This document shows positions 7,638 through 63,826 of a stretch of 64,000 bases of DNA, one piece after another. The stretch is from the NCBI GenBank assembly GCA_963719225.1, contig CAVRAY010000001.1, forward strand, positions 1,888,001 to 1,952,000, in the 5' to 3' direction. The stretch's first letter is position 1, and every line of letters begins with the position of its first letter. The DNA is from Thermoanaerobaculia bacterium. Lineage in GTDB: Bacteria > Acidobacteriota > Thermoanaerobaculia > UBA5066. Position numbers and translations under genes: made by a program. The notes below the pieces were generated by a model that made no database searches, was not told where the DNA came from, and was given only the letters and a program-made list of their open reading frames with translations.

Positions 7638-7739
7638 CGCGCAGGTCTCATGCGAACAGCGTAGCGGCCCGCTCAGCGAGCCGAATGACGCATGCGCATC
7701 ATCGACACGCCCCGGCCCGGTTGGGGCATAATGTCGAAG

Positions 7740-16707: not shown

Positions 16708-18969
16708 GTGGTGCGGCGTCCCATGGCCCTGTTCGGGCTGGTCGCGGCGGCGAGTCTCGCGGCGGCCTGCGGGGGCACGCGCCCCATGCCCGCGCTGGAG
16801 GACTACTCGCACGGAACTTCCGCCTTCGTGACCGAGTTGGGAAGGGAGTTTCAGGTCGGAAGAAGACCAGGAGAAGATTTCTTAGAAGGGGAAAGAGAAA
16901 GAGAGGATTTCTTAGAAGGTAATAGGGGAAAAGGCGCTGGTGCGATGGAGTCGCCGGCGGCAGCGCCCCTCAGGGAGTTTCAGTCGCGCTGGCGTTCCAC
17001 GTGCCATTTCCGCTGTGCTTCGGCGGTCCGCATCGTCGACCTTCAGAAGAAATCCTCTTCGGACCTGACTCTGCGCATTGAAGTCCGCCTCCAGGGCTTC
17101 GCCCGCGCGGAGGATCCGGAGCGCGTCGCGGCCTTGGGTGTCTTCGATCTCTCCCTCTTTCGCAGGGAAACCTCCGAATCCTCCTCGAAGACCCGCTGGC
17201 AGTTGCGTTCCGCTTCCGCCGTCGGCGCGTCCGAGATCCAGCGCGGCCATCCCCATCTCTTCGAGGAAGCCGCCGCGCGCGGTCTCGTCGCTCCGCACGA
17301 GCCCCTCGATCCCGTGGAGTCGACGAACCTTTGCCTCCCCGCGACGCACCACCACCCGGGAGTTCTGCTCGTGGACGTCGACGCGGACGGCGCCGTGGAC
17401 GTCGTCGTTCCGAACCGCCACCCGCGGCTTTTCCTGAACGACGGCTCCGGGCATTTCCTCGACGCGACCGCCGGCTCCGGCCTCGACCTCCTGCCCGAGA
17501 TGGAAGCGTCCGGGGGCGTCGCCGCCGACGTGGACGGGGACGGGCTGCCGGACCTCTTCCTCTCGAATCACATATCGCCGTGCCGGCTCCTGAAGAATCT
17601 CGGGCACGGGAGGTTCCGCGACGTCACCCAGGAGTGGGGCCTGGCGGGCCTCTCCGGGCCGTTCACGTCGGCCGTGTTCTTCGACGCCGACCGCGACGCC
17701 CGCGTCGATCTCTTCGTCGCGAGCTACGGAGACGCGCGCGCCACCGGCCCGGCCTATGACGGCCTGAACGGCACGGGCGACCGCTTCTTCCGGAACGTGG
17801 AGCGGAACGGGCACCCGTTCTTCGTGGACGAGACGGCGGCCTCCGGACTGCGGGACGTGGGCTGGGGCTTCGCCGCCGAGGCCTGCGACGCGGACGACGA
17901 CGGCGACGACGACCTCTACGTCGCGAACGATTTCGGGATGAACGGGTTCTTCGAGAACCGCTCCACGCCCGGCCACCCGCACTTCGTCAACATCGCCCGG
18001 ACGAATGGCACGAAGGACGAGGGATATGGAATGGGCGTCGCCTGGGGGGATTACGACGGAGACGGCCGCTGGGACCTGCACGTCTCGGATTACTGGACGC
18101 CCTATCGCTGGATCCTGAACGACTCCCGTTGGCCCATGCCGCCGCTCCCGGGCGCGGGCCTCGTGCGGGGACACATGGCGAAGATCATGAAGCGGCGTTC
18201 GGGGGGCGACGCGCTCTTTCGCAATCTCGGTGGCCTGAAGTTCGCGCGCACGTCGGAGGCAGCCGGCGTCGCGGACGGAGGCTGGGCCTGGGGCACGGAG
18301 TTCGTGGACCTCGACGGGAAAGGCCGCGAGGATCTCCTCGTCGTGAACGGCATGTTCCGGGCGACGACGGGCGTCGACGACGAGATCTCGTTCTGGAACG
18401 CGATGGGGCGGGAAGGCGTGAACTTCCACGACGGGATCTGGGGAGCCATCGACTTCGGCGTCAACGGCATGGCGTCACGGACGCCGAAGAAGCTCTTCTG
18501 GAATCGCGGCGACGGCACCTTCGAGGAGCGGGCGTTCGTGGAAGGGTTCGACACGCTCGAGGACACGCGCGGCCTCGCATATGCCGACCTCGACGGCGAC
18601 GGCGCGCCGGAGATCGTCGTCTCGTGCTTCCGCGGCCCCCTGCACGTCTATCGCAACGAATGGGGCAGCGGCGCCGGACGTGTCGTCGTCCGGCTCTCGG
18701 CCGACAAGGGCACGAACCGCGACGCTCTCGGCGCCGTCGTGCGCCTCACGGCCAACGGCAAGCTCCAGCTTCGCGAGGTGCGCGCGGGCTCGTCTTATCT
18801 CTCGCAGTCGTCGCACGATCTCCTCTTCGGCCTCGGCGGCGCGAAAGCGGCGGACCTCGAGGTCCGCTGGCCGGATGGGAGGAAGGACACGCTGCGCGAT
18901 GTTCCGGCCGGCACACTCGTGACGCTGGTCGAGGGAAGAAAAGAGAAGAGAGACTTGCTTAGAAAGTGA
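16708..18969 (+). CDS. CRTAC1-like lipoprotein: FG-GAP repeats plus ASPIC/UnbV domain
   Basis: Lipobox AAAC; repeated DxDGDGxxDL motifs; C-terminal NRDALGAVV...SYLSQS...FGLG...VRWPDG. Confidence 0.88.
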   Translation: MVRRPMALFGLVAAASLAAACGGTRPMPALEDYSHGTSAFVTELGREFQVGRRPGEDFLEGEREREDFLEGNRGKGAGAMESPAAAPLREFQSRWRSTCHFRCASAVRIVDLQKKSSSDLTLRIEVRLQGFARAEDPERVAALGVFDLSLFRRETSESSSKTRWQLRSASAVGASEIQRGHPHLFEEAAARGLVAPHEPLDPVESTNLCLPATHHHPGVLLVDVDADGAVDVVVPNRHPRLFLNDGSGHFLDATAGSGLDLLPEMEASGGVAADVDGDGLPDLFLSNHISPCRLLKNLGHGRFRDVTQEWGLAGLSGPFTSAVFFDADRDARVDLFVASYGDARATGPAYDGLNGTGDRFFRNVERNGHPFFVDETAASGLRDVGWGFAAEACDADDDGDDDLYVANDFGMNGFFENRSTPGHPHFVNIARTNGTKDEGYGMGVAWGDYDGDGRWDLHVSDYWTPYRWILNDSRWPMPPLPGAGLVRGHMAKIMKRRSGGDALFRNLGGLKFARTSEAAGVADGGWAWGTEFVDLDGKGREDLLVVNGMFRATTGVDDEISFWNAMGREGVNFHDGIWGAIDFGVNGMASRTPKKLFWNRGDGTFEERAFVEGFDTLEDTRGLAYADLDGDGAPEIVVSCFRGPLHVYRNEWGSGAGRVVVRLSADKGTNRDALGAVVRLTANGKLQLREVRAGSSYLSQSSHDLLFGLGGAKAADLEVRWPDGRKDTLRDVPAGTLVTLVEGRKEKRDLLRK
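16876..16920 (+). repeat. Two tandem copies of the dispersed element GATTTCTTAGAAGG, 30 bp apart
   Basis: Cores TTCTTAGAA at 16879 and 16909 in a GA-rich tract, encoding EDFLEG twice. A possible degenerate inverted partner lies at about 17041-17055. Confidence 0.85.
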
Positions 18970-19055
18970 ATGCGGAAAGACAAGAGCATATGCGGCAATA
19001 TCCATTCGATGAGCCGGCTTTTCTTTGTCCTCTTCTTCAATTCCCTTTCTAAGAA
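18956..19055. repeat. Convergent pair of TTCTWAGAA elements
   Basis: TGCTTAGAA at 18956 and TTCTAAGAA at 19047, spanning a gene junction. Confidence 0.75.
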
Positions 19056-22000
19056 ACCGTCTCTCTTCGAGCGTAGCGGTTGGGCCGCCCTTGCAATTCT
19101 GGTGGCAGCCGTCGCCTTGCCCTATTCCTCTTCAGCAGAAAATCCCTCTTCTCCCCGGTTCTCTCCCGAGCAGGCTTCGCGGATCCTGACGCTGCGAAAC
19201 GTGGGCCTCGCGCAACTCGAAGAAGACCGCCCGAAGGAGGCTCGCACGACGTTCGCGAAGCTCGCGGAGCTGCTGCCGGGCGAGCCGCTGCCGCTCGCGA
19301 ACGCCGCGATCGCAGCGTTGCGCGAGAAGGATCTGCCGGGAGCGGAGGCGATCCTCGGCAAGGCGCTCGCGCTGGGAGATCGGGCGGACCTTCAGGCCAT
19401 TCGCGCGCTTCTCGAAAACGAGCGAAACCGGCCCCCGGCCGCCCGGGCCGCTTTCGAGAGGGCCGCGTCTCTCGACCCGCACGACCTGGAGTCGCGCTGG
19501 CGCTTCGCGCGAAGCGTCGAGACGGACCCGTCCGCGTCGGCGGCCGACAAGGCCGCGCGCCGCGCGCGCCTCGCGGAGATCGTCGCGCGCTCGCCCTCGA
19601 ATCTGCCCGCGCGCCTGAAGCTCCTCCTCCTCGAGGGCGAGTCGAACGATGCGGCCGCGCTCTCGAAGGGCCTCGCGGAGCTGGATCCGCTCATCTCGGA
19701 CGGCGATGCCCGCCTGCGCCATTTTCTCGCGGAAGCCCGAACGCTCCTTGCCGGGGGCGACGTCAAGGGTGCCACGGTCAAAGTCCGCGTCCTCGAGAAC
19801 CTCCTCAGAGTCACGCCGCGCTACCAGCAGTCGCTCGGCGAGGTGTTCACGCAGGTCGTGGGGCTGCCCGTCGAGAAATTCTCCTCGAAGGTGGAGGAGG
19901 GATTGCGCACCGGCGCGGGTGCGGCGATTCCCGTGACGTTCCGCGCTCCGGCGGCGTCCGAGGAGAACGTGGAGAAGATTCTTCGAAAAGTGGATCTGAA
20001 GAACACGGGCGCGGCCGAGGCGTATTCCGTACCCGCCCCGTTCACCGCCGCTGTCTTCATCGATTTCGACCTCGACGGCGACCTCGACGTCTACCACTTC
20101 GGCGCGGGCAGGGCCGATCAGCTCCTCCGCAACAACCTCGATGGCACGTTCGCGGACGTGACGGCGAAAACCGGCGACGCGAAGCTCACCTCGAGAAAAG
20201 TCGTCCTCTCCGATGTGGATCGCGACGGCGATCCGGACCTCGTGGCGATCGACGCAAAAGGCGAGGTGGTCATTCGGCTGAATCTCCGCCAGGGCGTCTT
20301 CCGGAACGTCCCGCTCGGGGTGAATGGGGCGACGGATGTCGCGGTCGAGGACCTGAACGGAGATGGAATTCCCGACATCGTGGTGGCCACCTCCCACGGG
20401 CTGCGGCTGCTGTTGGGAAAGGGAGACGGGAGTTTCTTAGAAGGCGCGGGGAGCGGGCTCGATGCGGCGGGCGGCTCGGCCGCGATGCGGGCGGTGGTGC
20501 TTGGGGATTTCGACAACGACGGTTTTCCGGACGTCGTGGTGGCCTCTTCGGACGGCCTGCGCGCGTATCGCAACGTCGGGGGCGGCAAGTTCACGGACTG
20601 GCCGATCTTCTCTTCCCCTTCTAAGAAGTCTTCTTCCTCGTTCTCTTCGAACCTCTCGAACATCGAGGCGCTTCTCGCGTACGACGCGGACAAGGACGGG
20701 GATCTCGACCTCCTCGTCTCGGCCGGCGGGAAGACCACGGTCCTCGTCAACGACGGCGGAAATGCGAACGGCTGGCTCGACGTCGTGCTCGAAGGGCTGC
20801 AGACGGGATCGGGCAAGGTGAACAAGCACGGCGTCGGAAGCCTCGTCGAGGTGAAGGCGGGGAGCCTGTACGTCGCACGCACGGCGGGACTGGGGCCGAC
20901 GCATTTCGGTCTCGGGCGGCGCACGAAGGCGGACGTCGTGAGGGCGACGTGGACGAACGGCGTGCCGCAGAACCTCTTCGACCAGAAATCGAAGACCGTC
21001 GTGAAGGAGGTCCAGCAGCTCAAAGGTTCGTGTCCGTTCGTGTATGCGTTGAACGGCGAGGCCCGGGTCTGGAGCTTCGTCTCCGACGCGCTCGGCCGCT
21101 CGCCCATCGGGCTCCTCTACGACGGCGTCCACCTCGCGGGCGCCGACACGCGTGAATGGCTCTTCATCGACGGGGACACGCTGCGGCCCGACGCGCACCG
21201 CCGCCTCCTCCTCGACTACACCGAGGAGCTCTGGGAAGTCGCGTACCTCGACGAGGCGACGCTCGTGGCCGTCGATCATCCCGGGGGGACGGGCGTCGTC
21301 CCGAACGAGCGAACGATCCCGGGCGTGATGGAGAAGAAGGTCTTCACCGTGGCACGCCCGCGGCCACTGCGCTCCGCTTTCTCGGACGCCTCCGGCCGCT
21401 CCGAAGACGTGACCGGCCGGCTCGCGCGGCGCGACCGGGTCTACGTGAGCCCGGGGCCCGAGATGTTCTATCAGGGCGTGAGACAGGAGCACTCTCTCGT
21501 CCTCGATCTCGGCGACGTGAAGGGCGGCGATCGCGTCGTCCTCTACCTCTCCGGCTGGATCTTCTACACGGACACGTCCATCAACGTCTCGATCTCGCAG
21601 CGCGGGGACCTTCGACACTTTCCGCCGCTTCTCGAGGTTCCGGACGGAAACGGCGGATGGAAGATCGCGATGGAGTCGTTCGGCTTCCCGGCGGGCAAGA
21701 CGAAGACGATGCCCGTCGATCTCACGGGGCTCGTCGATCCGAAGGACCCGCGCGTGCGAATTCGCACCACCATGGCGATCTTCTGGGACGAGGCCTTCGT
21801 CACGGTGAACGACCCGGCGGTCGATGTGGTGACGACTTCGCTCGCGCCGTCCTCGGCTTCTCTCTCGGAGCGCGGCTTTCCGCGCGGGTATCGCGAGACT
21901 CCGGACGGACCCGAGGTGTTCGACCACGGCGACGTCTCGACCGCGCCGCGCTGGGAGGACATGCCCGGCCGCGTCACGCGCCTCGGCGACGTCACGGAGC

Positions 22001-22372: not shown

Positions 22373-24133
22373 GTGTTTTTTCTTAGAAGGGTGAATTCTC
22401 TGACAGCAGCCGCACTCGCAGCGCTTCTCCTGTCGCCGCGCCCCTCTTACCCATTCGAAGGATCTTCTTCTTCTTCTTCCTCTTTGACTCCTCCCATCCG
22501 CTTCACCGACGTGACCAAGCGAGCGGGACTGAACTTCAGGTTCGAGACCGACCTCCGCCGCGGGCGGAACCTGGCGACCATGGGCGGGGGCGTGGCGATG
22601 GGGGACTTCGACGGCGACGGTTTCGCCGACCTCTTCTTCACGGGCTCCGTCGCGAACGGCAAGAAGCCCGACGCGGGTCCGTGCGGCGTCCTCTACCGCA
22701 ACCGCGGCGACGGCACGTTCGAGGACGTCACGGCTCGTTCGGGAATCCGGTCGTGCGGCTGGACGATGGGCGCCTCGTGGGTCGACCTCGACGGCTCGGG
22801 GCTCCCGGACCTGATCGTCACGGGAGTCGGAAAGACGTCACTTTTCAAGAACCTCGGGAACGGGACGTTTCGCGAGGAAGGCGCGGTCCGCGGACTCGTC
22901 GCGCCGGGCTACTCCGTGGGCCTCGCGGCTGGCGACGTCGACGGGGACGGCCGCGTCGACCTCTACGTCGTCGGGTACCTCGACACGGATTACAGGAAGG
23001 AACAGTCCTTTCCGGCGCTCCAGGTGCGGATGCCGGAAGACTACGAAGGGCAGCCGGCGACTTTGCTCGTGCAGGATGCCGGGGGTCGTTTCCACGGGCG
23101 CTCGAAACCGGCGGGCGTGACGAACGCGGGGGGGCGCGGGCTGGGAGCGGTGTTCTTCGACTACGACGGCGACGGCCGGCCGGACCTCTACGTCGCGAAC
23201 GACCGGTCGACGAACGTCCTCTACCGCAACCGTGGCGACGGCACGTTCGAGGACGTGACGGTCGAGACCGGCGGGGGCGCACGCGACCAGAAGATTCCCC
23301 GCGCGGGCATGGGAATCGCGGTCGGCGACGTGGACGGAGACGGGCTGCCGGACGTTCTCGTCACGAATTTCTCCGGGGAGCCGAACACGCTCTATCGAAA
23401 CGTGGACGGGATTCTCTTCGACGACGCGACCGAGACTTTTGGCGTGGATCGCGCCTCTTTTCCATACGTGGAATGGGGGACCGACTTCGCGGACCTCGAC
23501 GACGACGGCCGGATGGATCTCGTGGCGGCGTCGGGCCACCTCGTGCCGCGCATTCTCCTCACGTTCGCGAAGTTCTTCCGGAAGAACGGCCTCGGAGTGT
23601 ACGGGCTCGGTGACCACTCCTACGCGCAGCCGCCGCTCGTCTGGCGCAACGACGGGCACGGCCGCCTCGCCGACGTCACGCTCCAATCGGGCGACTGGGC
23701 AGCCCTGCGCCTCTCGGCGCGCGGGCTCGCGGTAGGCGACGTGGACGGCGACGGGCGGCTCGACGTCGCGATCGCCGCGATCGCCGGCGGGATCCGCCTC
23801 ATGAAGAACTCCACGGGGTCACCCGGGCACGCGCTCGAGATCCTGCCGGTCGCGGGAGCGGACCGCCGGACCGTTCTCGGGACGAGGGTCGTCGTGACCG
23901 CGGGCGCTCTCCGCCAGGTGCAGGAGTTCATCCTGCGGCCCTCGTACGCATCCGGGGCGTGGATGCCGCTGCACTTCGGGCTCGGCGCGGCGACCGCGGC
24001 TACGGTGGAAGTCGTCCCGCCCGGAAAGACGGCTCCCGCCTCGCGCTTCGAGGCCGTGGCCGCCGACCGTCTCTACACCCTGCGCGACGGGAAGCTCGAG
24101 GAGAAGAGGGGATTCAGGCTCCAGCGGCCGTGA
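22373..24133 (+). CDS. CRTAC1 family FG-GAP/ASPIC-UnbV protein
   Basis: Signal peptide, IRFTDVTKRAGL, TMGGGVAMGDFDGDG, AGMGIAVGD, ARGLAVGD, LHFGLG. Confidence 0.9.
   Translation: MFFLRRVNSLTAAALAALLLSPRPSYPFEGSSSSSSSLTPPIRFTDVTKRAGLNFRFETDLRRGRNLATMGGGVAMGDFDGDGFADLFFTGSVANGKKPDAGPCGVLYRNRGDGTFEDVTARSGIRSCGWTMGASWVDLDGSGLPDLIVTGVGKTSLFKNLGNGTFREEGAVRGLVAPGYSVGLAAGDVDGDGRVDLYVVGYLDTDYRKEQSFPALQVRMPEDYEGQPATLLVQDAGGRFHGRSKPAGVTNAGGRGLGAVFFDYDGDGRPDLYVANDRSTNVLYRNRGDGTFEDVTVETGGGARDQKIPRAGMGIAVGDVDGDGLPDVLVTNFSGEPNTLYRNVDGILFDDATETFGVDRASFPYVEWGTDFADLDDDGRMDLVAASGHLVPRILLTFAKFFRKNGLGVYGLGDHSYAQPPLVWRNDGHGRLADVTLQSGDWAALRLSARGLAVGDVDGDGRLDVAIAAIAGGIRLMKNSTGSPGHALEILPVAGADRRTVLGTRVVVTAGALRQVQEFILRPSYASGAWMPLHFGLGAATAATVEVVPPGKTAPASRFEAVAADRLYTLRDGKLEEKRGFRLQRP
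22380..22462. repeat. TTCTWAGAA element with degenerate inverted partner
   Basis: TTCTTAGAA at 22380; TTCGAAGGA at 22454 followed by a TCT run encoding poly-Ser. Confidence 0.65.
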
Positions 24134-24521: not shown

Positions 24522-24563
24522 GAGCCTGCGAGTTTGGCAGGGATACGGAAGAGGCGAAGAGAT

Positions 24564-24649
24564 TTCTTAGAGGGGAAGAGGGGCACGCCGCTCCTGTGTT
24601 TGCGGTGTCGAAACCCTGCGGAACACCTTCCGTATTCACCATCTAAGAA
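24564..24649. repeat. Convergent pair of element variants in a divergent intergenic region
   Basis: GATTTCTTAGAGGGG (core 24564) and ATCTAAGAAAA (24641). Confidence 0.7.
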
Positions 24650-24677
24650 AACACCACGACCCGAAGGGAGGCATTCC

Positions 24678-35396: not shown

Positions 35397-35800
35397 GGGG
35401 GCGAAAATGTTACTCCAGGGAGCGACGGCGCGGATCCATCGTAGAGTCCGTGGGATGAAGCGAGCGGTTTCGACGCTTTCTTTCGCAGCTGTCCTTCTTT
35501 CGGTCTTCACGGCGTCCGTCTCGAGGGCTGAGTCCCCGCCGCCTCCGAAGCTTCGCCTGCCCGCGGGAGCCGCTCCACTGGGCTACGCCGCGGAGCTCTG
35601 GATCGACCCTTCCCAGGGGACGTTCAAGGGGAAGATAGAGATAGAAATCTCTTCGAAAGGCGAAGAGGGCACCGTCTGGTTGAACGCCAGGGATCTGGTC
35701 GTGGAAACGGCGTCCGCCCGCCGCGCCGAGGGGGGCGAGGCGAATCCCGCCGCTGCGGCTTTGGCAGGCAGGGACTTCGTCTCCCTCACCTTTCAAAGAA
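35381..35800. repeat. Cluster of TTCTWAGAA elements
   Basis: TTCTTAGAA at 35381, CTCTTCGAA at 35649 and inverted TTCAAAGAA at 35792, with GA- or CT-rich flanks. Confidence 0.65.
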
Positions 35801-38154
35801 ATCTTTCTCCCGGCCGGTGGATCCTGAGCCTCGAGTACAAGGGCCGCGTCGACCTCAAGGACACCCACGGCCTCTTCCGGCAACGGGAGGGAGACGACTG
35901 GTATGTCTTCAGCCAGTTCGAAGCCATCTCGGCGAGACGGGCGTTCCCCTGCTTCGACGAGCCGGGATTCAAGGTCCCGTGGCAGCTCACGCTGCACGTC
36001 CCGAGGCACCACGTCGCCGTCTCGAACACGCCGGTCCTCTCCGAGGCCGACGAAGCGGGCGGCACGAAGAAGGTGGTGTTCGAGCGGACGAAGCCCCTCC
36101 CGAGCTACCTGATCGCTCTCGGAGTCGGACCGTTCGATGTCGTGTCCGCGGGCACGGCCGGCCGGAACAAGGTCCCGATCCGGATGATCGTTCCGAAGGG
36201 CCGCGGCGCCGAGGCGCGCTGGGCCGTCGCGTCCACGGGAACGATCCTCGATCTCCTTGAGACCTATTTCGACATTCCGTACCCTTACGAGAAGCTCGAT
36301 CACCTCGTGATTCCCCAGACCGTCGGATTCGGGGCGATGGAGAACCCGGGCCTCGTCACGTACGTCTCGACGTCCATCCTCGCGAAGAGTGCCGACGAGA
36401 CGATCCTCTTCCGGAGGCGATACGCGGGCGTCTGCGCCCACGAGACCGCGCACCAGTGGTTCGGCGACTTCGTGACGATGGCCTGGTGGGACGACGTGTG
36501 GCTGAACGAGTCTTTCGCGACGTGGATGGCGAACAAGATCATCGGGAAGTGGAAACCCGAGTGGGGCTCGCGCGCGGCACGTGTCTCGACGCGCTCCTAC
36601 GCCATGGACCTGGATTCCCTCGTTTCAGCCCGGCGCATCCGCCAGCCCATCGAATCCAACGACGACATCGAAAACGCGTTCGACGGCATCACGTACCAGA
36701 AGGGCGGCGCCGTTCTCGACATGTTCGAGTCGTGGGTCGGCGAAGAGACCTTCCGGAAAGGCGTTCACCAGTACCTGAAATCGCACGCGTTCGGCAACGC
36801 GACGGCGGCCGACTTCGTCGGAGCCATCGCCTCCGAGGCGAGGAAGCCGGAGCTGAACGCCGCTTTCTTCTCGTTCCTCGACCAGCCGGGGGTTCCGCTC
36901 GTGTCGGTCGAGCTGACCTGTACGGGAGGCGCGCCCCGCGTGCTCCTGTCGCAGAAGCGCTTTCTGCCCGCCGGCTCCTCGGGCTCGACGCGGGAGACCT
37001 GGCGCATTCCGGTCTGCGTGCGGACCGGCGAAGTCGGGGCGGCCCCCGTCTGCACTTTGCTCACGGAGGAAAAGGGGAGCCTCGCGCTCCCGGGGGCCTG
37101 CCCCGAGCGGGTCGTCGCGAACGCCGCTTCCGCCGGCTACTACCGGGTGCTGTACAAGGGAAGCGCGCTCGGAAAGGCGCTCGCCGATTCCGGGAGGCAC
37201 CTCTCGCCGGTCGAACGCATCGCCGTGCTGGTGGACGTGGCGGCTCTCGCGCGCACGGGCGAGGTGCCGATGGCGACGGCGCTCGCGCTCGTGCCCGCCT
37301 TCGCCGGCGATCCGGATCGACAGGTCGTGGAGGCGATGGCTCGAATCGCGGCGTCGCCGCGCGATCTCTTCGTCACGGACGAGCTGCGTCCGAACTACCG
37401 GCGCTTCGTGTCTGACGCGTTCGGCGCGCGGGCGCGGGCTCTCGGCCTGAAGTCGAAGCCGGGCGAGGACGACGACACGAAGCTCCTCCGGTCGGCCCTG
37501 GTCGGCCTCGTCGCGGATGAAGCGGACGATCCGGCGCTCGTCGCCGAGGCTTCGTCGCTCGCGAAGAAGTGGCTCACCGACCGTTCCGCGATCGAGCCGG
37601 AGATGCTGCCCACGGTGCTGACGGTGGCGGCCCGGCACGGCGACGCGGAGACGTTCACGGCGTTCCTGGCCGCGGCGAAGACGTCGCGGGACCGGCGCGA
37701 GCGCGGGCGCCTTCTCGCGGCTCTCGGCGCTTTCCGCGATCCGTCCGTCCAGAAGCTCGCTTTGAACGTCACACTTTCTCCCGATTTCGACGCGCGCGAG
37801 TCGCTCGTGGTGCTCCGCGAGGCGGCCGCCGACCGCGTGACGCGCGAGGGCGCCTGGGCGTTCCTGAAGGCGAACTTCGCCGCGCTCGCCGCGCGGCTCC
37901 CGAGCGAGTCTCCCGCCGGGTTCCCGCAGCTCACCGCCGGTTTCAGCGACGAGGCGCACCGGGCGGACGTCGCGGCTTTCTTCAAGGACAAGGCCCCGAA
38001 CTACACCGGCGGTCCGAGGCGCCTCGCGCAATCGCTCGAACAGATCCAGCTCAAGGCCGCCCTCCGCGCCGCGCAGCAGGAGAGTGTGACCGCCTTTCTC
38101 AAGAACTATCCGGCCAAGCCCATGATCGACGTCCGGCCCCAGACGGGCATCTAG
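35455..38154 (+). CDS. M1 family aminopeptidase with ERAP1-like C-terminal domain
   Basis: Signal peptide; SQFE...ARRAFPCFDEP, GAMENPG, HETAHQWFG...WLNESFA, ITYQKG. Confidence 0.95.
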   Translation: MKRAVSTLSFAAVLLSVFTASVSRAESPPPPKLRLPAGAAPLGYAAELWIDPSQGTFKGKIEIEISSKGEEGTVWLNARDLVVETASARRAEGGEANPAAAALAGRDFVSLTFQRNLSPGRWILSLEYKGRVDLKDTHGLFRQREGDDWYVFSQFEAISARRAFPCFDEPGFKVPWQLTLHVPRHHVAVSNTPVLSEADEAGGTKKVVFERTKPLPSYLIALGVGPFDVVSAGTAGRNKVPIRMIVPKGRGAEARWAVASTGTILDLLETYFDIPYPYEKLDHLVIPQTVGFGAMENPGLVTYVSTSILAKSADETILFRRRYAGVCAHETAHQWFGDFVTMAWWDDVWLNESFATWMANKIIGKWKPEWGSRAARVSTRSYAMDLDSLVSARRIRQPIESNDDIENAFDGITYQKGGAVLDMFESWVGEETFRKGVHQYLKSHAFGNATAADFVGAIASEARKPELNAAFFSFLDQPGVPLVSVELTCTGGAPRVLLSQKRFLPAGSSGSTRETWRIPVCVRTGEVGAAPVCTLLTEEKGSLALPGACPERVVANAASAGYYRVLYKGSALGKALADSGRHLSPVERIAVLVDVAALARTGEVPMATALALVPAFAGDPDRQVVEAMARIAASPRDLFVTDELRPNYRRFVSDAFGARARALGLKSKPGEDDDTKLLRSALVGLVADEADDPALVAEASSLAKKWLTDRSAIEPEMLPTVLTVAARHGDAETFTAFLAAAKTSRDRRERGRLLAALGAFRDPSVQKLALNVTLSPDFDARESLVVLREAAADRVTREGAWAFLKANFAALAARLPSESPAGFPQLTAGFSDEAHRADVAAFFKDKAPNYTGGPRRLAQSLEQIQLKAALRAAQQESVTAFLKNYPAKPMIDVRPQTGI

Positions 38155-46078: not shown

Positions 46079-46777
46079 TCAACGTGCTCCGAGCTCGCCC
46101 GCCAGCCACTCGGCGGCGTCGCGGTAGGCCTCGCGGGGGAGGCGCCCGTCGACGTCCGGGGCATAGAGCTTCTCGATCACTCCATCGGAGGAAATATTTG
46201 CTTCGGACCCGAGCAATGCCTCCAGCAGCACTCTTCGGGGTGCGCTGTCGAAGAATTTCCTAGAAGGGGAAGAGGGGGAGGGAAAGCCCGCGGGGTCGGG
46301 CGTTCTGCTTTGCAAAATCGCTACGGCGGCGGGAGCCGCGTCGGCCCCCATCCACTTTCTAAGAAAATCCCCCGTGGGTTCCACGAGAAGCCAGCCCGTT
46401 GGCGCGCCCTTGCTCTCTGCACGGGTCCGAAGCAAATCTTCCCTCGGCGGCTCTTTCGGCGCGTTCTCGAAAAGCAGAACGACGAACCCGCGCTCCGCGA
46501 GGGGCCCGAGGATCCGATCCTTCGGGCACGCCCTTGCGCCCGGCGCCGCGCAGACGACGACGATGGAAGGGCGGCCGGCAGCCGCGACGCGCTTTCGCTT
46601 GTCCGGATAGACGGAGCCGGGGAGCAGGGCGGCGTAGAGCTTCGGAACGTAGAGGCGCGCCCAGTCGCCGTTCGAAGAGATCTTCTCGGTCCGCTGCCAA
46701 AGGGACGACGCGCAGCCCGTCAGGCCGAAGGCCAGAAGCGCGACGAGGAAACAACGGGCGGCGGCAAAGTCTTTCAA
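46079..46777 (-). CDS. Hypothetical lipoprotein
   Basis: TTG start overlaps the addA stop (TTGA); lipobox LTGC; LAERGFVVL segment. Confidence 0.6.
   Translation of the reverse strand: MKDFAAARCFLVALLAFGLTGCASSLWQRTEKISSNGDWARLYVPKLYAALLPGSVYPDKRKRVAAAGRPSIVVVCAAPGARACPKDRILGPLAERGFVVLLFENAPKEPPREDLLRTRAESKGAPTGWLLVEPTGDFLRKWMGADAAPAAVAILQSRTPDPAGFPSPSSPSRKFFDSAPRRVLLEALLGSEANISSDGVIEKLYAPDVDGRLPREAYRDAAEWLAGELGAR
46257..46365. repeat. Convergent pair of TTCTWAGAA elements inside a CDS
   Basis: TTCCTAGAA at 46257 and TTCTAAGAA at 46357. Confidence 0.75.
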
Positions 46778-49700
46778 TCTTCTTCGAATGGTAAGGAGGC
46801 CTGGACGGGACGCCGGCCCTGCGCCTGCGACGCGCCCGCTTCGGGCTCCGCCGCTCTCTCTACCCCCTTCAAAGAATCTCTTTCTTTCTCCCCCCTCGAC
46901 GTATCTCGGCTTCGTCCTTCCTCCAGCCACTGCAGATGTCCGTTGTCCATGAAATAGAGCCCCGCCACGGCGCGCTGTTTCGTGAGCGCCTCCCACGCCT
47001 TGCGGTAATGCTCGATCTGCGGCGCGTAGTGAGCGACGAGGGCGTCGAGGTTGTCGCCGACGACGTCGGATTTCCAGTCCACGATGTGCCAGATCCCGTC
47101 CTCTTCGAAGACGAGGTCGATCGCGCCCTTGAGGAGCGTCTCCTCCGGCCCGCCCGAGACTCCGAGCTCGGCCGATGGAACCATCATGGCGAAAGGCGCC
47201 TCGACGAACCTGCGTTTCGCCGCGAGGGCCCGCGCCCAGAGCGGCGACGTCGTGACCGAGTCGGCCACGCGGAGCACCTCGTCGAGAAACGCCGATCCGA
47301 GCTCCTCCTCGCGCAGGAGGTTCTGCGCGACGGGGCGCAGCGAGAGGCCGGGCGTTCGCATCGCCGCCTCGAGGAGCTGGTGCAGAACGCGTCCCCAGGC
47401 GGTGCCGCGGGCGTTCTCGGCTGCGGCCGGCGCGCGCGGGCCTTCCTTCTTCGCGAGCGCGGTGACGGGCGCCACGACGAACGAAGGAGTCGCGGCGCTC
47501 AGACGCCCCTCGGCGATCCTCTTTCGGGCCCCGGCGAGCTCCGCCGCGAGCGGCGGAGTCTTCGCGGGAGCGAAAGGCCGAAGCTCGGCGATCGCGGGCG
47601 GAAGTTCCTTCAACCCGGACCTCAGAGGCGCCCATGCTCCGCTTTCCGGCTTGTCCTCCCGGAGGCTCACGACCAGCGTGTCGCGGGCCCGTGTCGCAGC
47701 GACGTAGAGGAGTCGCGTCCTCTCGGCCTCCTCGAAGGCGATCTCGTCGTTCTTGCGGCTCTCCCAGTCGGGAGGAGTCGCTGTCGCGGCCCACTGATTC
47801 GGCCGCATCCAGTATCCCGCCGTGAACCAGCCGCGCGATCCCGCGGCGCCGCGCGCGACGTGGCGCCTGGGCTCGGGCTTCCTCCAGACACTGAGCTCGG
47901 CGAGGACCACGATGGGGGCCTCGAGGCCCTTGGCCCGGTGGAGGTTCATGAGTCGGACGGCGTCCGCGTCGACGGGCTCGACGCTCATCTCCTCGAGATC
48001 GAGGGAGGGCGCGTCCTCGGCGAGCCGCTGTACGACGTCCCGGAACGAATGCCCTTCGCTCGTCAGCCGCCGCGCGAGCGCCAGTACTTTCAGGAGGTTG
48101 CCGCTGGCGGTTCGTCCTTCGGGCCCTGCGGCGAGCCGTGCGACGAGGCCGAGCCTGTCGCACGTGAGGGCGAGAGCGGCGCCGGCCGGATGCACGTTCA
48201 CGTCCTTCCGCGCTCTTGCGAGGAGGCCGAGGCCGCGGGAGATCCTCGGGTCCGTTCCCGGCGGAGGGTCGACGAGATAGGAGAAGCGCCCGCCGGCCCG
48301 ATGGAATTCGTAGAGCGCTTCGTCGTCGACGCCCGAGAGAGGGCCCGAGAGGAACGCGACGATCGAGACGTCGTCATCCGGATCCTGGATCGCCGCGAGG
48401 AACGGCCGCAGCACCGCGAGCCCTTTCGAGATCGGGAGCGCCCGGCTTCCCGACACGTCCACCGGTATTCCGAGCGCCTCGAACGCCCGTGCATAGACGT
48501 CGAGGTGTTCACGCGTCCGCGTCAGGACCAGGAAGTCACCGAAACGCGCGGCGCGTTCGGGCCCGTCGGATGAGACCGGCCATTTGTGGTCGACTGCTCC
48601 CCGGACGAAGCTCGCGACGTCGGAGGCATTGGCACATGCGAGCTCTTCGGCGCTGGCGCCGGCGCGCGTGAGGAGGCGAAACGCTCCGGACCTCTCCGAC
48701 CGGTCGTCTCGCACGGGTTCGAGGGGAGAGAAGGCAGCCTGGCGGTCGTCGGCGACCGCCGGAAACCGGCTTCGAAACCAGGCATTCGCCGGATCCGTGA
48801 GAGCTCGGACGGCCCGGAAGTTCGCGTCGAGCCGGACGATGCGTCCGCCGGACGCGACGAGCGTGCGGCGAAAATTCATGTATGCCGCGATGTCCGCGCG
48901 CCGGAAGCGATAGATCGACTGCTTGGGATCGCCCACGACGAAGAGCGATCCGGCCCTGGGCTTCAGACGCGACACGTCCTTCTCGTCCAGGTCGTCGCTC
49001 GTCAGGTAAAGGAGGATCTCTGCCTGCAGCGGATCGGTGTCCTGGAACTCGTCGACGAGGAGGTGCGTGAAGCGCGTCGTGAACGCCCGCCGAACCGCGG
49101 GGAAGTCCCGCAGGAGGTCGCGTGTCGCGAGAAGCAGGTCCGCATACGTGAACGGCCCGTTACCGGCGCGCCGCGACGCGAGATGCGCCAGCCCCGGCCG
49201 GAGCACGGCATAGATCCGCTCGTGCAGCGCGAGCTGCCACTCCGCGAGCGCAGGCTTGATGACGTCCTGGCGAAGAGCCTCGAACTCCTTGCCGAGGCTT
49301 CTCGCCAGTTCCTTGTCGGGCCATTTGTACAGGGTCGCACCGCCGGCCGGACGAAGAATTCTTAGAAGGCGGGCGAAGCCAGGCGGCGTCGCGTATTCGG
49401 GAAGCTCTCGCAGATTTCGCGCTTCGAGCAGCCGCGCCTGCAGGTCGTCGCGACCCGCCGCGCCGGGCGCTTCCGGGACCAGCGGAATTACCCTTCTAAG
49501 AAAATCTTCAATCTTCCCTCGTATTTCCTCGAAGTCGGGCAGCGCGAGCGGATCGGCGACGACGGGGACGACGTCGGGGTATTCGGCGTAGAGCTCGAAG
49601 CTGTCCTCCAGCTCTCTCATCGTGACGCCGAGCGCGAAGAGGGAAGCGACGGGGCTCCGGGCGTCCGCAAGCGTGCCGACATACTCGCGGAACGTTCGAG

Positions 49701-53305: not shown

Positions 53306-54838
53306 ATGGAAGGCGTCTCGCTCGGGCTGCCGACGCTGATCGCGATCGCCGTGTACCTCGCCGGCATCAACGTCCTCGGCGCGGTGCTCGGGCGGGGCCA
53401 GAAGGACGCGAAGGACTATTTCCTGGGCTCTCACGCGATGCCCTGGTGGGCCGTGATGGCCTCGATCGTCGCGACGGAGACCTCGGCGCTCACGTTCCTT
53501 TCCGTCCCCGGAGACGCCTACCGCACGGGCTTCACGTTTCTGCAGCTCGCGTTCGGCTATCTCCTCGGGCGCATCGCGGTCTCGTCGCTGCTCCTGCCCG
53601 GCTACTTTCAGGGCGAGATCACGACCGCCTACGCGCTCCTCGAACGGCGGTTCGGCGTCGGCGCGCGTCGCTTCACGTCGCTCATCTTCATGGTCACGCG
53701 CGTCATGGCCGCGAGCGTCCGCCTCGCGGTTCCCGCGATCCCGATCGCGCTCATCCTCGGCATTCCCGTGTGGATCGCGATCCTGTTGCTCGCGGCCGCG
53801 ACGGCTCTCTACACGTTCCTGGGGGGCCTCAAGGCCGTCATCTGGATCGATCTGATCCAGGTCGTCGTGTATCTCTCGGGCGCGATCATGGCGTTATGGG
53901 TGCTTCTCAATTCGTTCGGCGGGGGATTCGGAGGATTTCAAGAGATTCTTAGAAGGTGCAATGCGCTGGGGAACCCGGTTCGGCTCATTAACCTTTCTAA
54001 GAACTTTGCAGAACCCTACACTTTGTGGGCAGGTGTCATCGGAGGAGCCGTGCTTGCGATGGCCTCGCACGGCGCCGACCAGCTCATCGTCCAGCGGCTC
54101 CTCGCGTGTCGCGGCCTGCGCGACGCGCAGAAGGCCCTCGTCGGGAGCGGCGTCCTCGTGATCCTGCAGTTCTGCCTTTTCCTCGCCGTCGGAGTCGGAC
54201 TCTTCGCGTTCTACGGAGGGCGCGCCGTGGGCCCGGGCGGGTTCGCGACGAGCGACGAGATCTTCCCGGCGTTCATCGTCGGCCATCTCCCGCCCTTCAT
54301 TTCCGCGTATCTCATCGCCGGCATCTTCTCGGCGGCCATGTGCTCGGAGTCGTCCGCGCTCAACTCGCTCGCCTCGGCGCTCTCGCTCGACATCGTGGCG
54401 CCGCTGCTCGGGAGGAAGTACGTGGAAGGGAAGAGGGGCCTCGTCCTCGGGAAGATTCTGACGCTGTTCTGGACGGTCGTTCTCGCCGGGCTGGCCGTCG
54501 GCTTCTCGCGCCTGCCGCAGAACGTCCCGGCCGTACAGGTCGCGCTGGGCCTCGCGAGCGTGACGGCGGGCGGCCTCCTCGGCGCATTCCTGCTCGCGCT
54601 TTGGGCGAAGAAGGCGACTCAGACGGACGCGATGATCGGCATCGCCACGTCGGCCGTCTTCATGTTCGTCCTGTGGCTCGGATCGAAGGGCTGGGTGCCG
54701 TTCACGCTCGGGAAAATGATCGCGTGGCCGTGGTACTCGCTCCTCGGCTCGACGATCGCGTTCGGGACGGGGTGGCTCCTGTCACAGCGCCATACGACGC
54801 GAGGCCCGCGGTTCGGTGTGCCGCCGTCCCCGAGCTGA
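53306..54838 (+). CDS. Sodium:solute symporter family protein
   Basis: DYFLG...PWWAV..SIVATETSALTFLSVPG, GGLKAVIWID, HGADQLIVQRLL, SAAM.S.SSALNSL. Confidence 0.93.
   Translation: MEGVSLGLPTLIAIAVYLAGINVLGAVLGRGQKDAKDYFLGSHAMPWWAVMASIVATETSALTFLSVPGDAYRTGFTFLQLAFGYLLGRIAVSSLLLPGYFQGEITTAYALLERRFGVGARRFTSLIFMVTRVMAASVRLAVPAIPIALILGIPVWIAILLLAAATALYTFLGGLKAVIWIDLIQVVVYLSGAIMALWVLLNSFGGGFGGFQEILRRCNALGNPVRLINLSKNFAEPYTLWAGVIGGAVLAMASHGADQLIVQRLLACRGLRDAQKALVGSGVLVILQFCLFLAVGVGLFAFYGGRAVGPGGFATSDEIFPAFIVGHLPPFISAYLIAGIFSAAMCSESSALNSLASALSLDIVAPLLGRKYVEGKRGLVLGKILTLFWTVVLAGLAVGFSRLPQNVPAVQVALGLASVTAGGLLGAFLLALWAKKATQTDAMIGIATSAVFMFVLWLGSKGWVPFTLGKMIAWPWYSLLGSTIAFGTGWLLSQRHTTRGPRFGVPPSPS
53946..54003. 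repeat. Convergent pair of TTCTWAGAA elements inside the symporter gene
   Basis: TTCTTAGAA at 53946 and TTCTAAGAA at 53995 within an AT-rich patch. Confidence 0.8.
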
Positions 54839-56545: not shown

Positions 56546-56980
56546 TCACATGCCCAACATCACCCTTGCCACGCGCGACATCATCTCCGCGGTCCAGGGC
56601 GGCTCCCAGACGAGCTCGACCTTCGCATCGGTGATGCCGGGGATGGCCTTGATCTTCGTCTCGACCTCGCCCGGCAGGGAGCCTGCGACCGGACACGCGG
56701 GCGCCGTCAGCGTCATCTTCACGTTCGCGACGCCTTCGGGTGACACGCGCACGTCGTAGATCAGCCCCAGCTCCCAGATGTTCACGGGGATCTCGGGGTC
56801 GAAGCACTTCTTCAAGGCCTCATCGATGACCTTCTGCTCGAGAGGACTGGGAGAAGAGGAAGACGAAGATTGCTCGGATGACACGGGGTCGGACGCCGCA
56901 GACTGTACCGCCGATGCCGCGTACGCTTCGCCAGTGCTCTTGCCCTTATTACCTTCTAAGAAATCTTTCTCTTCTCCCAT
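56546..56980 (-). CDS. sufT: DUF59 / SufT Fe-S assembly factor with low-complexity N-terminal extension
   Basis: DPEIPVNIWELGLIY, MTLTAPACPVAGSLP, LVWEPPW; last gene of the suf operon. Confidence 0.9.
   Translation of the reverse strand: MGEEKDFLEGNKGKSTGEAYAASAVQSAASDPVSSEQSSSSSSPSPLEQKVIDEALKKCFDPEIPVNIWELGLIYDVRVSPEGVANVKMTLTAPACPVAGSLPGEVETKIKAIPGITDAKVELVWEPPWTAEMMSRVARVMLGM
56931..56965 (-). repeat. Extended copy of the dispersed element
   Basis: GATTTCTTAGAAGGTAATAAGGGCAAGAGCACTGG is 30/35 identical to 16906-16940. Confidence 0.85.
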
Positions 56981-58719: not shown

Positions 58720-60098
58720 CGGCTCTCCGGAGCCGCGAGGTTCGCGGGCAGCCACGCGCGGAGGTGCCCCTCGAGGAAGGCCCTGACGTCGCGGGAGGCC
58801 ACCTTCTCGATCATCTCGCTGCCGAACGCGTACGTGAGGAGGGCGCGCGCCGCCTCGGGCGAGAGGCCGCGCGAGCGGAGGTAGAAGACGGCGTCCGCGT
58901 CGAGGCGTCCCGTCGTGGAGCCGTGCGAGCAGCGGACGTCGTTGTTGTGGATCTCGAGCTGCGGCTTGCTGTCGACGAGGGCGTTGTCCGAGAGGATGAG
59001 GTTGCGGTTCGTCTGGCGCGCGTCGGTTCGCGCGGCCCCGGGACGCACGACGATCTTGCCGTCGAAGACCCCGCGGCCCGTCCCATCGAGGACGCCCTTG
59101 TAGAGCTCGACGCTGTTGGCGCGAGGCGCCACGTGGTCGATGAGCGTGTGACAGTCGACGTGCTGGCCCGAGTCCGCGCAGAAGAGGCCGTTGAGCTCGG
59201 TTCCCGCCCCTTCGCCCGCGAGGTCCATCGCGAGCTCGTTGCGGACGAGCCTGCCGCCGAACGAAAAGACGTGGGACGCGGACGTCGCGCCCGCGGCGTG
59301 GGCGACCGAGAGATTCCCGACGTGAAACGACTCCGGACCCTCGAGCTGGAGCTTGACGTGATTGATGCGCGCGTCCCGCGCGAGGGAAACGTCCGTCCGG
59401 GTGTTCATGAAGGACGGGCCGCCGGCACCGAGATAGGTCTCGATCACCGTGGCCGAGGAATTCTCTTCGAAGGTGAAGAGATTCCGCGTGTGCACCATCC
59501 GGGGCGCTTCCGAGGAGCCAGGGGGCGTCGCGACGTGAAGGATGAAGAGGGGCTCTTCGAGGCGGACGCCGGCGGCGACGCGAAGAACGACACCTTCGTC
59601 CAGAAAAGCATCACCGAGAGCGGCAAAACTGCCCCGCGCGGGACCCTCAGCCGCGGCCGACGCGACGAGGGCCTTCTCGACGACCTCCGGCGATTCCCGG
59701 AGGACCGTCCCCATCCATTCGAAGAAGACCCCCGGGGGAAGAGCTCCGGCGTTTCGACGCAGGTGTCGCCCGTTCACGAACGCGAGCCTCGGCTCCGAAG
59801 CCGAAAATCCGATCGTTCCGAGCCGCGCCTCCATCTCGAGGGCCGCGGTCCGCTCGGCGAGGGAGACCTCGTCGGGGGGGAGGCCGAATCCCGTTCGGGT
59901 CAGCGGCGCGAGGTTCGTGAATCGCCATTCCTCGTCGTACGTCGAGGGAAACCCGAGCCGCTCGAATCCCGCGAGACCGTTCCGGCGCAGCTTCTGCAGC
60001 CAGGGCGGGCCCGGACGGGAGGCGGCAAAGTCCGAGGCCTGCGCCGCGAGCGCCGCGACTCCCTCGTGGAGCACCAGGGGCCGGGCCGCGCGCGTCAT
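58716..60098 (-). CDS. sufD: Fe-S cluster assembly protein SufD
   Basis: [31 protein letters not shown]...FYLRSRG. Confidence 0.94.
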
Positions 60099-62866: not shown

Positions 62867-62902
62867 GAGAGAGAATGGAGATTGAAGAGAAGATAAGGGA
62901 TT

Positions 62903-62993
62903 CTCTTAGAAAGGGTTAGTGAGAAGTCGTCTCAATGCCGGGGACGGCACCGTGAGCCGCGAACTAGCTTCAAACCCTCTTACCTTCTAAGAA
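62903..62993. repeat. Convergent pair of TTCTWAGAA elements upstream of the suf operon
   Basis: CTCTTAGAA at 62903 after a long GA tract and TTCTAAGAA at 62985, which supplies the amrB TAG stop. Confidence 0.8.
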
Positions 62994-63826
62994 ATCCGAA
63001 TCTCTCGTTCTCCCATTCCGACCGCGAAGGCGCCGTAGCCGACGACCCGGTGCGGGTCGCCGGCCGTGTCCGCCGAAGTCCTGAGGTCGAGGAGCTCCAC
63101 CGGGAGGTCTTTCCGGCGCGCGAGCTCGACGAGGCCACGGAGCGCGAAGATCCCGCACGCGTCCCCCTCGACGAGCGCGCTCGCCTTCCGCGCGACGACG
63201 TTCTCGGCCGTTTGTCTGTCGAGCCGGCGGGCGGTCTCGACGCCGTGGTAGTGGCTGAGGTCCGTGCTCACGAGGACGAGGGTGCCCGCCTCGCCCAGGA
63301 AAGCGTCGATGAGATCGGCCGTCTCCGGAGCCGGCTGCTCCGAGACGGCGACAGGCAGAAAGGTGAATCCTTCGCCGAAAACCCGCTGCAGGAACGGGAG
63401 CTGAACCTCGAGCGAATGCTCGGGGGCGTGCGGCCGGTCGTCGACCGTCGCTCCATGGGCCACGGCCCGTTCGCGAAGCGCGGTATCGACCAGCACCTCA
63501 CCGAGGGGCGTCGCCCATGCGCCCGCTGCGGGAACCGCCGCGCCGCGGACGGCAACGTAGTGGACCGGCCCGAAAGCCACGACGCGCGAGATCGAGGCGG
63601 CCATGCTGCTCAACCAGGCGTACGCCGTCGCCGCGACGGGACCCGAGTAGACGTAGCCCGCGTGCGGGACGACGAGGGCCAGTGGCGGCGGCGCACTTGC
63701 CGGAATGGCCGCTCCCGCGAGCAAATCGTCGACCATCCGCTCCAGCTCGCCGGGCCGTGCCGGATAGAACGTCCCCGCGACGGCGGGCGCCCGAACCCGG
63801 GACGGCGCCGCGGCGCCGAGCCTCAT
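62987..63826 (-). CDS. amrB: AmmeMemoRadiSam system protein B (MEMO1 family)
   Basis: PAVAGTFYP, PHAGYVYSG, TPLGEV, EHSLEVQLPFLQ, STDLSHY, ACG, VVGYGA. Confidence 0.93.
   Translation of the reverse strand: MRLGAAAPSRVRAPAVAGTFYPARPGELERMVDDLLAGAAIPASAPPPLALVVPHAGYVYSGPVAATAYAWLSSMAASISRVVAFGPVHYVAVRGAAVPAAGAWATPLGEVLVDTALRERAVAHGATVDDRPHAPEHSLEVQLPFLQRVFGEGFTFLPVAVSEQPAPETADLIDAFLGEAGTLVLVSTDLSHYHGVETARRLDRQTAENVVARKASALVEGDACGIFALRGLVELARRKDLPVELLDLRTSADTAGDPHRVVGYGAFAVGMGEREIRIS

Follow-up and report, generated by a model that had tools for sequence, protein, structure and literature searches.

The window analyzed here, a stretch of 64,000 nucleotides from the genome of a Thermoanaerobaculia bacterium (Acidobacteriota), contains two copies of a nearly identical 35-base segment, one at the beginning of a SufT-family gene and the other in the gene of a predicted lipoprotein about 40 kb away. 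An earlier note on this DNA attributed at least some copies to copying or insertion, by analogy with the Rickettsia palindromic elements (RPE), and proposed that the element may generate new protein segments. The question raised by this locus is whether the match is the trace of such a mobile element or belongs to something of a different nature. The features discussed are collected in Table 1; G000 denotes the genome under study, and G019, G082 and similar handles denote assemblies of relatives.

Table 1. Genes, motif arms and convergent pairs referred to in the text (window positions unless another reference is given; for pairs, the centre and strand of each arm are listed).
Feature	Position	Strand	Remarks
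SufT/FeS_assembly_P protein	56546..56980	-	~45-residue N-terminal extension built from one motif pair
First 35-mer: strong motif arm and inner purine-rich flank	56931..56965	-	Core 56952-56965, 29 bits; encodes DFLEGNKGKSTG
Decayed partner arm of SufT pair	56867..56885	+	-3 bits here; at least 9 bits, same spacing, in 15 orthologues
FG-GAP/ASPIC-UnbV (CRTAC1-like) predicted lipoprotein	16708..18969	+	Arms in N-terminal linker and at C-terminus
Second 35-mer: strong motif arm in CRTAC1-like linker	16906..16940	+	Core 16906-16919, 29 bits
Tandem extra arm	16876..16889	+	32 bits; local duplication in this genome and a few orthologues
Weak partner arm	17037..17055	-	5 bits; its peptide LQKKSSS is shared by the genus and differs in outgroups
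Second weak CRTAC1-like partner	17153-17171		9 bits
Convergent pair	18953..19058		18960+ / 19051-
Convergent pair inside a gene	20431..20630		20438+ / 20623-
Convergent pair	22377..22465		22384+ / 22458-
Convergent pair	24561..24652		24568+ / 24645-
Convergent pair	35646..35803		35653+ / 35796-; further + arm at 35385
Convergent pair	46254..46368		46261+ / 46361-
Convergent pair	46777..46879		46784+ / 46872-
Convergent pair	49356..49505		49363+ / 49498-
Convergent pair inside a gene	53943..54006		53950+ / 53999-
Convergent pair inside sufD	59460..59729		59467+ / 59722-; gap-free vs relative's protein
Convergent pair	62900..62996		62907+ / 62989-; minus arm is the third copy
IS110-like element with motif	G000:C1:1112869; also 2198887, 2200873, 2206350, 2209385		L293, L309
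Secreted tandem-ComEA protein	G000:C1:1007226-1007921 (L215:7226-7921)		Two ComEA domains, flexible linker

The 35-base match and its two host genes

The match was confirmed: positions 56965-56931 (minus) and 16906-16940 (plus) are identical at 30 of 35 bases, the first 19 without exception, and both are read in the same frame as DFLEG, which is written MGEEKDFLEGNKGKSTG in the SufT-family open reading frame (ORF) and REREDFLEGNRGKGAG in the FG-GAP/ASPIC-UnbV ORF, here called CRTAC1-like. A third copy, announced near 62985, lies at 62996-62980 (minus), where it is the source of the TAG stop codon of an AmmeMemoRadiSam-B ORF. Past the 35 bases the identity continues in the purine-rich flank only, and nothing is shared beyond it. 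The 14-mer, taken at up to two mismatches, has 16 matches in the window against 0.10 expected from random sequence, and its 53 occurrences in the genome form 1378 copy pairs, 18 of which reach at least 30 identities in 35: ten represent one IS110 element, four are kinase paralogues and four join unrelated loci, including the SufT/CRTAC1-like match. Since an independent-column shuffle expects 0.29 pairs of this quality, the flank variants of the motif copies are correlated, and among these copies the 35-base match is unremarkable.

The SufT/FeS_assembly_P gene is located at the end of a suf operon, and relatives of its product assign the genome to Thermoanaerobaculia (Acidobacteriota). The protein probably starts at the upstream ATG, as suggested by an M-[GS]-EE beginning conserved in orthologues. 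On the gene strand, the decayed partner arm is followed 3' by a pyrimidine-rich flank encoding SSSSSSPS. The 27 alleles compared comprise 16 with both arms (15 of them at one spacing), three with a decayed right arm, one with the left arm only and seven with none; five carry duplications of about 81-87 bp. The four shortest alleles have near-identical junctions and are scattered in the tree among filled alleles, which implies repeated loss or short-tract exchange. Contigs of the sequencing runs corresponded to relatives only (best share 0.23), and joints found close to SufT and L30 either correspond to the shorter alleles of relatives or recur in a DNA run, which is equally compatible with the presence and the absence of excision or inversion. 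The arm of the CRTAC1-like gene is orthologous in all 23 genus members compared, and three outgroups have a similar linker that lacks it; in this genome the linker also contains a local duplication of 19-21 residues. Both the SufT and the CRTAC1-like sites are poorly paired here, while many orthologues retain the partners. Direct copying between the two loci was rejected: both sites are old, with orthologous counterparts throughout the genus, and the match is an ordinary one among the 14-mer copies.

Convergent pairs of a directional motif

The 35-mers are members of an oriented, genome-wide motif composed of TTTCTTNGAARG between purine-rich flanks that extend about 20 bases upstream and 10-15 downstream. 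The sequence TTCTTAGAA occurs 273 times, against 6.7 expected under a fourth-order Markov model, and the exact 12-mer is present in 128 copies. An iterated profile, which describes a partial dyad (TTC-TTN-GAA) followed by RG and is directional, returned 975 sites at 14 bits or more compared with 141 in the reversed genome, so that roughly 830-900 sites are real. The motif is AT-rich in a genome of 68% GC. Strands are used equally along the chromosome, with 93 of 188 solo sites on the leading strand, and sense and antisense orientations are unbiased among solo sites (47 vs 37). Read as a minus-strand site, the 3' end of the 16S rRNA together with the first bases of the spacer (G000:C1:905529-905556) reaches 17 bits; the motif is similar to an extended Shine-Dalgarno complement, yet is not positioned like ribosome-binding sites. 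An IS110-like element, which has a long non-coding region downstream, bears a single strong motif without a partner, located ~60 bp from the right end of the element and retained in four related copies in G019. IS110 genes of G174 and G166 have a site (27 and 17 bits, respectively) that lies ~1 kb downstream from the match.

The main feature of the system, absent from the earlier note, is that sites are arranged head to head. Neighbouring sites no more than about 300 bp apart form 299 convergent, 27 divergent and 104 co-oriented pairs, and in the subset of 597 strong sites used for partner counts, 428 have a convergent partner at 40-260 bp, compared with 11 for divergent and 44 and 49 for co-oriented partners. 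The same rule was observed in a 1.2-Mb sample of G019 (109 convergent vs 9 divergent) and with an exact pair pattern in 29 genomes of the genus (703 vs 2). Nine divergent matches at 49 bp proved to be one repeated element. Centre-to-centre spacing has a median of 105 bp (10th-90th percentiles 68-187) and a mode near 75, with no 10.5-bp periodicity (Rayleigh p 0.29, 243 de-duplicated pairs); helical phasing, first suggested by the fixed 91-base spacing of 15 SufT alleles, was discarded as the L29, tandem-ComEA and G019 comparisons show free spacing. Pairs occur at a density of about one per 8-15 kb; in the window, 30 sites at 12 bits or more form 11 convergent pairs. De novo analysis of 400 kb of the low-motif genome G082 yielded no other paired motif, only sparse copies of the same one.

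Pairing depends neither on the strand or frame in which the sites are read nor on what lies between them. BLAST clustering divides the interiors of 294 pairs into 243 groups, of which a single one, made up of kinase paralogues, is large, and the arms of one pair are no more alike than shuffled arms, with the exception of a weak signal at a single variable core position (z 2.2; p 0.046). The 5' and 3' arms on mRNA have an identical profile; 16 pairs are located wholly between divergent genes and five wholly between convergent genes, and the distances of sites to start codons show no Shine-Dalgarno spacing. Pairs are conserved: among 63 that could be aligned to G019 (76% nucleotide identity), both arms are kept in 51, with altered spacing in 30 of these, and joint loss of both arms gives p 0.04-0.12.

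Overwritten genes and the distribution of sites

About 70% of the sites (683 of 975) are located in predicted genes, on both strands equally and in all frames, according to gene calls from a custom script in which some starts are uncertain; 181 of the 294 pairs are contained in one gene. The remaining 292 sites occupy the 10% of DNA between genes, an enrichment of ~4-fold. A comparison with 228 orthologues in 400 kb of G082 provided 52 aligned sites (seven more fell outside the alignments), of which 33 show no gap, 10 small gaps and nine extra residues, and amino-acid identity decreases from 69% elsewhere to 40% at the sites. Most sites have thus been written over existing protein sequence by substitution, at a cost to the protein. 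The kinase subfamily and the ribosomal protein L29 illustrate this mode, as their host segments are older than the motif. In the kinases the pair is read as FFEGEE...YSFEEI with protein length unchanged, and two outgroup kinases with similar peptides use GAG codons and have low motif scores, whereas the motif-bearing genes use the rare GAA and TTA; the Lys/Ala tail of L29 is motif-free in five relatives and contains a pair at 132-159 bp in the genus. Sites favour permissive regions such as linkers and tails, and local arm duplications and long GAA tracts recur at them. The Ser/Thr kinase subfamily with the pair forms tandem arrays in genera g1 and g11 (G000:C1:2293328-2319654 and elsewhere), with 4-21 close matches per genome compared with 0-4 in other genera, a difference partly due to query bias. 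Ribosomal proteins L30 and L29 (L115:2773-3255 and 7187-7693) have extensions of ~100 residues containing motif sites.

The proposal of an element that generates protein segments can be kept in part. The motif is dispersed over the whole genome, is read in frame and shapes proteins, and a minority of sites add residues, as in the SufT extension with its short 'empty' orthologues, the CRTAC1-like linker duplication and the nine aligned sites at which the protein is longer than its relative. RPE-like mobility and copying between the two loci were not supported, given the predominance of gap-free substitutions, the diversity of pair interiors and the outgroup CRTAC1-like proteins, which have a linker of similar length and no motif.

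All 24 genomes compared in genus g1 are rich in the 12-mer, which is lacking from all 16 of those from other families of the order. Among 251 genomes of the class, a tally in which G193 enters as one background row with no bearing on any conclusion, only g1 and g11 rise above background; all eight g11 genomes have lower counts (20-118, controls 2-12) and other genera of the family have 0-13. The pair pattern was found in none of 397 other genomes of the phylum. Within the range of these searches, the motif is restricted to two genera, both belonging to Thermoanaerobaculia. Viral contigs gave 16 pair-pattern matches, 13 of which are below 45% GC and show no further enrichment; these matches were taken as chance.

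Along the chromosome the sites are unevenly distributed. The GC skew reaches its maximum at C1:2.1 Mb, and dnaA lies together with a parS-like site at C2:326-334 kb. Sites in genes amount to 22 per 100 kb in the terminus half and 8 in the origin half (about 2.7-fold, motif bases masked), and in DNA shared with G019 the figures are 12 in the origin half versus 34. Site counts of DNA shared by G000 and G019 are nearly equal (166 vs 156 in 483 kb, 36 vs 35 in 290 kb), and G019 DNA that does not align to G000 is not depleted (126 sites in 435 kb). One dense block, terminus-proximal here, adjoins dnaA in the G019 assembly with its sites intact; G019:C2:1-700000, next to the dnaA region of that assembly, maps in reverse to G000 C1:1.4-2.1 Mb, which denotes a large rearrangement or a misjoin in one assembly. 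Several islands lack the motif: the three examined among the largest site-free stretches of the dense half are accessory regions, islands of 45-60 kb, one of them with an integrase beside a tRNA. The block G000:C2:600000-871796 contains a second tmRNA, a second smpB and a duplicated tRNA-Pro, and probably represents assembly contamination or a duplicated block.

Possible readers of the pairs and comparison with known systems

The pairs are likely a two-site recognition signal for a putative DNA-binding protein acting on double-stranded DNA. Such a protein would read the arms at the DNA level, since both arms are symmetric and show no base-pairing signal. A protein that holds both arms of folded-back DNA, or two tracking enzymes that meet, would be expected to use inverted sites whose spacing is free above a minimum. 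Our preferred reading, put forward tentatively and at somewhat less than an even chance, is that the pairs constitute a DNA-uptake-type signal spread by drive. In the proposed geometry, DNA folded back in a short U-turn would bring the inverted sites side by side, parallel and both facing the bend, an uptake receptor would grip both arms, and uptake-biased recombination would drive the pairs through the population. This reading is favoured because a long, costly, flank-optimised motif with duplications and absence from islands matches described uptake sequences, and because the genome encodes the uptake machinery, namely ComEC (above the equivalog cut-off), two ComEA proteins, DprA, secretins and pilins. 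The reduced protein identity at sites, the rare codons and the conserved arms point in the same direction, and the repeated arm duplications and GAA tracts give the motif a runaway look. Against it, known DUS (see below) act singly and are denser than the pairs, the origin-poor gradient, also seen in DNA shared with G019, is not predicted by uptake, the non-aligning G019 DNA is undepleted, joint arm loss is weakly supported, and competence genes occur in motif-free relatives as well.

A secreted tandem-ComEA protein is a weak candidate for the receptor. ComEA domains bind DNA and are not known to have a sequence preference; a single-sequence fold predicted two helical domains and a disordered linker with low confidence (mean pLDDT 64). 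The gene was detected in 23 of 28 g1 genomes, five of eight g11 genomes (one partial, one frameshifted in the assembly) and clearly in two of 26 others; it was not found in four well-assembled motif-bearing genomes and is present in the motif-free G266 and G268, and it predates the motif. In most g1 genomes the gene itself contains two pairs, the first at its start codon and the second in the segment encoding the linker. The comEC gene (L114:7541-9919; G000:C1:1877541-1879919) adjoins the densest site cluster of the genome, nine in 3 kb, which may be chance. Other factors were discarded as their occurrence does not follow that of the motif (HU/IHF, tyrosine recombinases, SMC, Y1 transposase, IS110, DprA and secretin). 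The same applies to a basic protein of 164 residues with two helical repeats, an AT-hook-like RGRPGRP and no Pfam family (G000:C1:3836045-3836539; L107:3045-3539), a possible uncharacterised nucleoid protein that occurs family-wide, in 54 of 61 genomes.

A cytoplasmic chromosome-organising protein could instead bridge convergent sites into a small loop, or pin the tip of a supercoil, with selection on folding keeping the pairs; we hold this to be somewhat less likely than uptake. In its favour, the partial dyad of the core (TTC-N3-GAA) is typical of dimers, site density follows chromosome position reproducibly in homologous G019 DNA, and sites are enriched between genes. Supercoil domains are on the scale of 8-15 kb, which is the density of the pairs. 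A nucleoid role has been proposed for the cyanobacterial motif HIP1 (PMC5861425). Folding is disfavoured by the absence of helical phasing and by the altered spacings, both among conserved pairs and in the L29 tail, by the terminus-proximal block that adjoins dnaA in G019, and by the failure to find a tracking protein: HU/IHF, SMC and integrases are alike in motif-free relatives, and the AT-hook candidate is family-wide. Two DNA-tracking enzymes might also meet head to head at the pairs, used as loading or stop signals in repair or recombination, and bias which alleles are retained. Type III/ISP restriction enzymes meet in this way and recognize sites of 5-7 bp. Tracking enzymes need exactly such geometry, inverted sites at free spacing without phase, and the repeated losses and the duplicated 81-87-bp units of SufT alleles would suit them, but the solo sites have no leading/lagging bias, a crude scan of the predicted proteome with regular expressions showed no obvious type III/ISP enzyme or 5mC methylase, and a motif of 12 bp with long flanks is far from 5-7 bp; we hold this to be improbable.

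Explanations based on the arms as repeats fare worse. That the arms base-pair in RNA or single-stranded DNA, forming long hairpins that are cut, spliced or regulate translation, is very improbable: left and right arms pair in any combination (about -27 kcal/mol) and the plus arm is like the complement of the 16S 3' end, which itself scores as a minus site, but true pairs fold no better than shuffled ones (-26.8 vs -26.5 +/- 0.4 kcal/mol), G-U-compatible mismatches are not favoured (198 vs 176, p 0.28, 218 pairs) and sites lack Shine-Dalgarno spacing. Moreover, kinase pairs enclose essential kinase elements, and the single Rfam match in the window is a tRNA-Gly gene at 835-906. The idea that the pairs delimit a short mobile element of the RPE, MITE or REPIN type that inserts in frame is largely refuted for most sites and deserves very little credence overall. 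It accounts for the filled and short SufT alleles, with their scattered, near-identical junctions, and for the nine sites with extra residues, but not for the lack of a shared interior, the gap-free majority or the kinase and L29 segments that preceded the motif. A Y1/RAYT transposase (PF01797) was not found in G000 (97% complete) or G019 (91%), but was found in G174 and in the motif-free G166 and G075, and IS110 does not track the motif (six of 14 genomes in g1, six of 14 in g13). Inverted orientation and short spacing would also befit invertible segments flipped by a recombinase, a proposal that we consider barely credible, as paired arms are no more alike than random arms, no extra integrase was found, and interiors are collinear and in frame in SufT, kinase, L29 and tandem-ComEA orthologues.

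Whether import or folding is involved, we lean slightly toward a new class of chromosome signal, in which hundreds of oriented sites would work only as head-to-head pairs and a putative two-handed reader would close a loop of 70-200 bp, a signal strong enough to rewrite hundreds of proteins of an entire soil genus. As an uptake signal, it would have arisen independently of those already described, in soil bacteria that are uncultured, and would be the first to need two sites; how internal DNA bends to enter the uptake pore, a long-standing question, would become directly testable. As a folding signal, it would be a bacterial one whose convergence rule is reminiscent of CTCF. Few lineages are known to have abundant motifs that override protein sequence (uptake sequences, HIP1), and here the affected proteins range from ribosomal protein tails to a kinase family. 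The peptides FLEG, SSK, FEE and PSKK and the serine runs that recur in the genus are by-products of DNA, of relevance to annotation and to the origin of low-complexity protein segments, and a sister genus with few pairs provides a natural gradient.

No description of the motif or of its paired architecture was found in a literature search limited to main texts outside subscription journals. Chi, KOPS and matS are short chromosome signals that can lie in genes, matS being position-biased. Unlike Chi and KOPS, which follow the direction of replication, the present motif has no replication orientation, and unlike matS, a palindrome with few copies in a bounded domain, it is directional and has ~900 copies. 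The DNA uptake sequences of Neisseriaceae (DUS) and Pasteurellaceae (USS) are lineage-specific, oriented, present in hundreds of copies, found in ORFs and permissive regions and missing from new DNA (PMC2817400, PMC2397512). The likeness to them comprises oriented, lineage-specific over-representation, ORFs affected on both strands, enriched peptides and absence from islands; the competence machinery is present, but not specific to motif-bearing genomes. DUS act singly, with inverted pairs only at 21 nt or less, in terminators (PMC2397512), whereas here the convergent partner of most strong sites stands at a distance of 40-260 bp and the pairs are largely intragenic. Neisseria has one DUS per ~1.1-1.5 kb according to the same paper; the present pairs are sparser and follow an origin-poor gradient. 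Like HIP1 (PMC5861425), the motif is over-represented and conserved within and between ORFs with no evident gene-level role. HIP1 is a perfect 8-bp palindrome, directionless and tied to methylases; the present motif is directional, longer, AT-rich and paired, and the crude proteome scan gave no 5mC methylase motif. REPINs share the inverted doublet with a spacer, but they are extragenic and replicate with a RAYT, whereas most pairs here are wholly intragenic, with unrelated spacers and no Y1 transposase in two genomes. RPE contribute an in-frame peptide to unrelated genes (PMC10969869), a likeness to RPE and MITE that extends to the present motif; RPE are inserting families of ~150 bp with a conserved peptide, whereas here only the two arms are common, no shared body of ~100-150 bp exists, and most sites lack an insertion, SufT with its short alleles being the exception. 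We regard the pairs as a variant of a known theme, that of an abundant motif which leaves its mark on a proteome, and they may well represent a new class.
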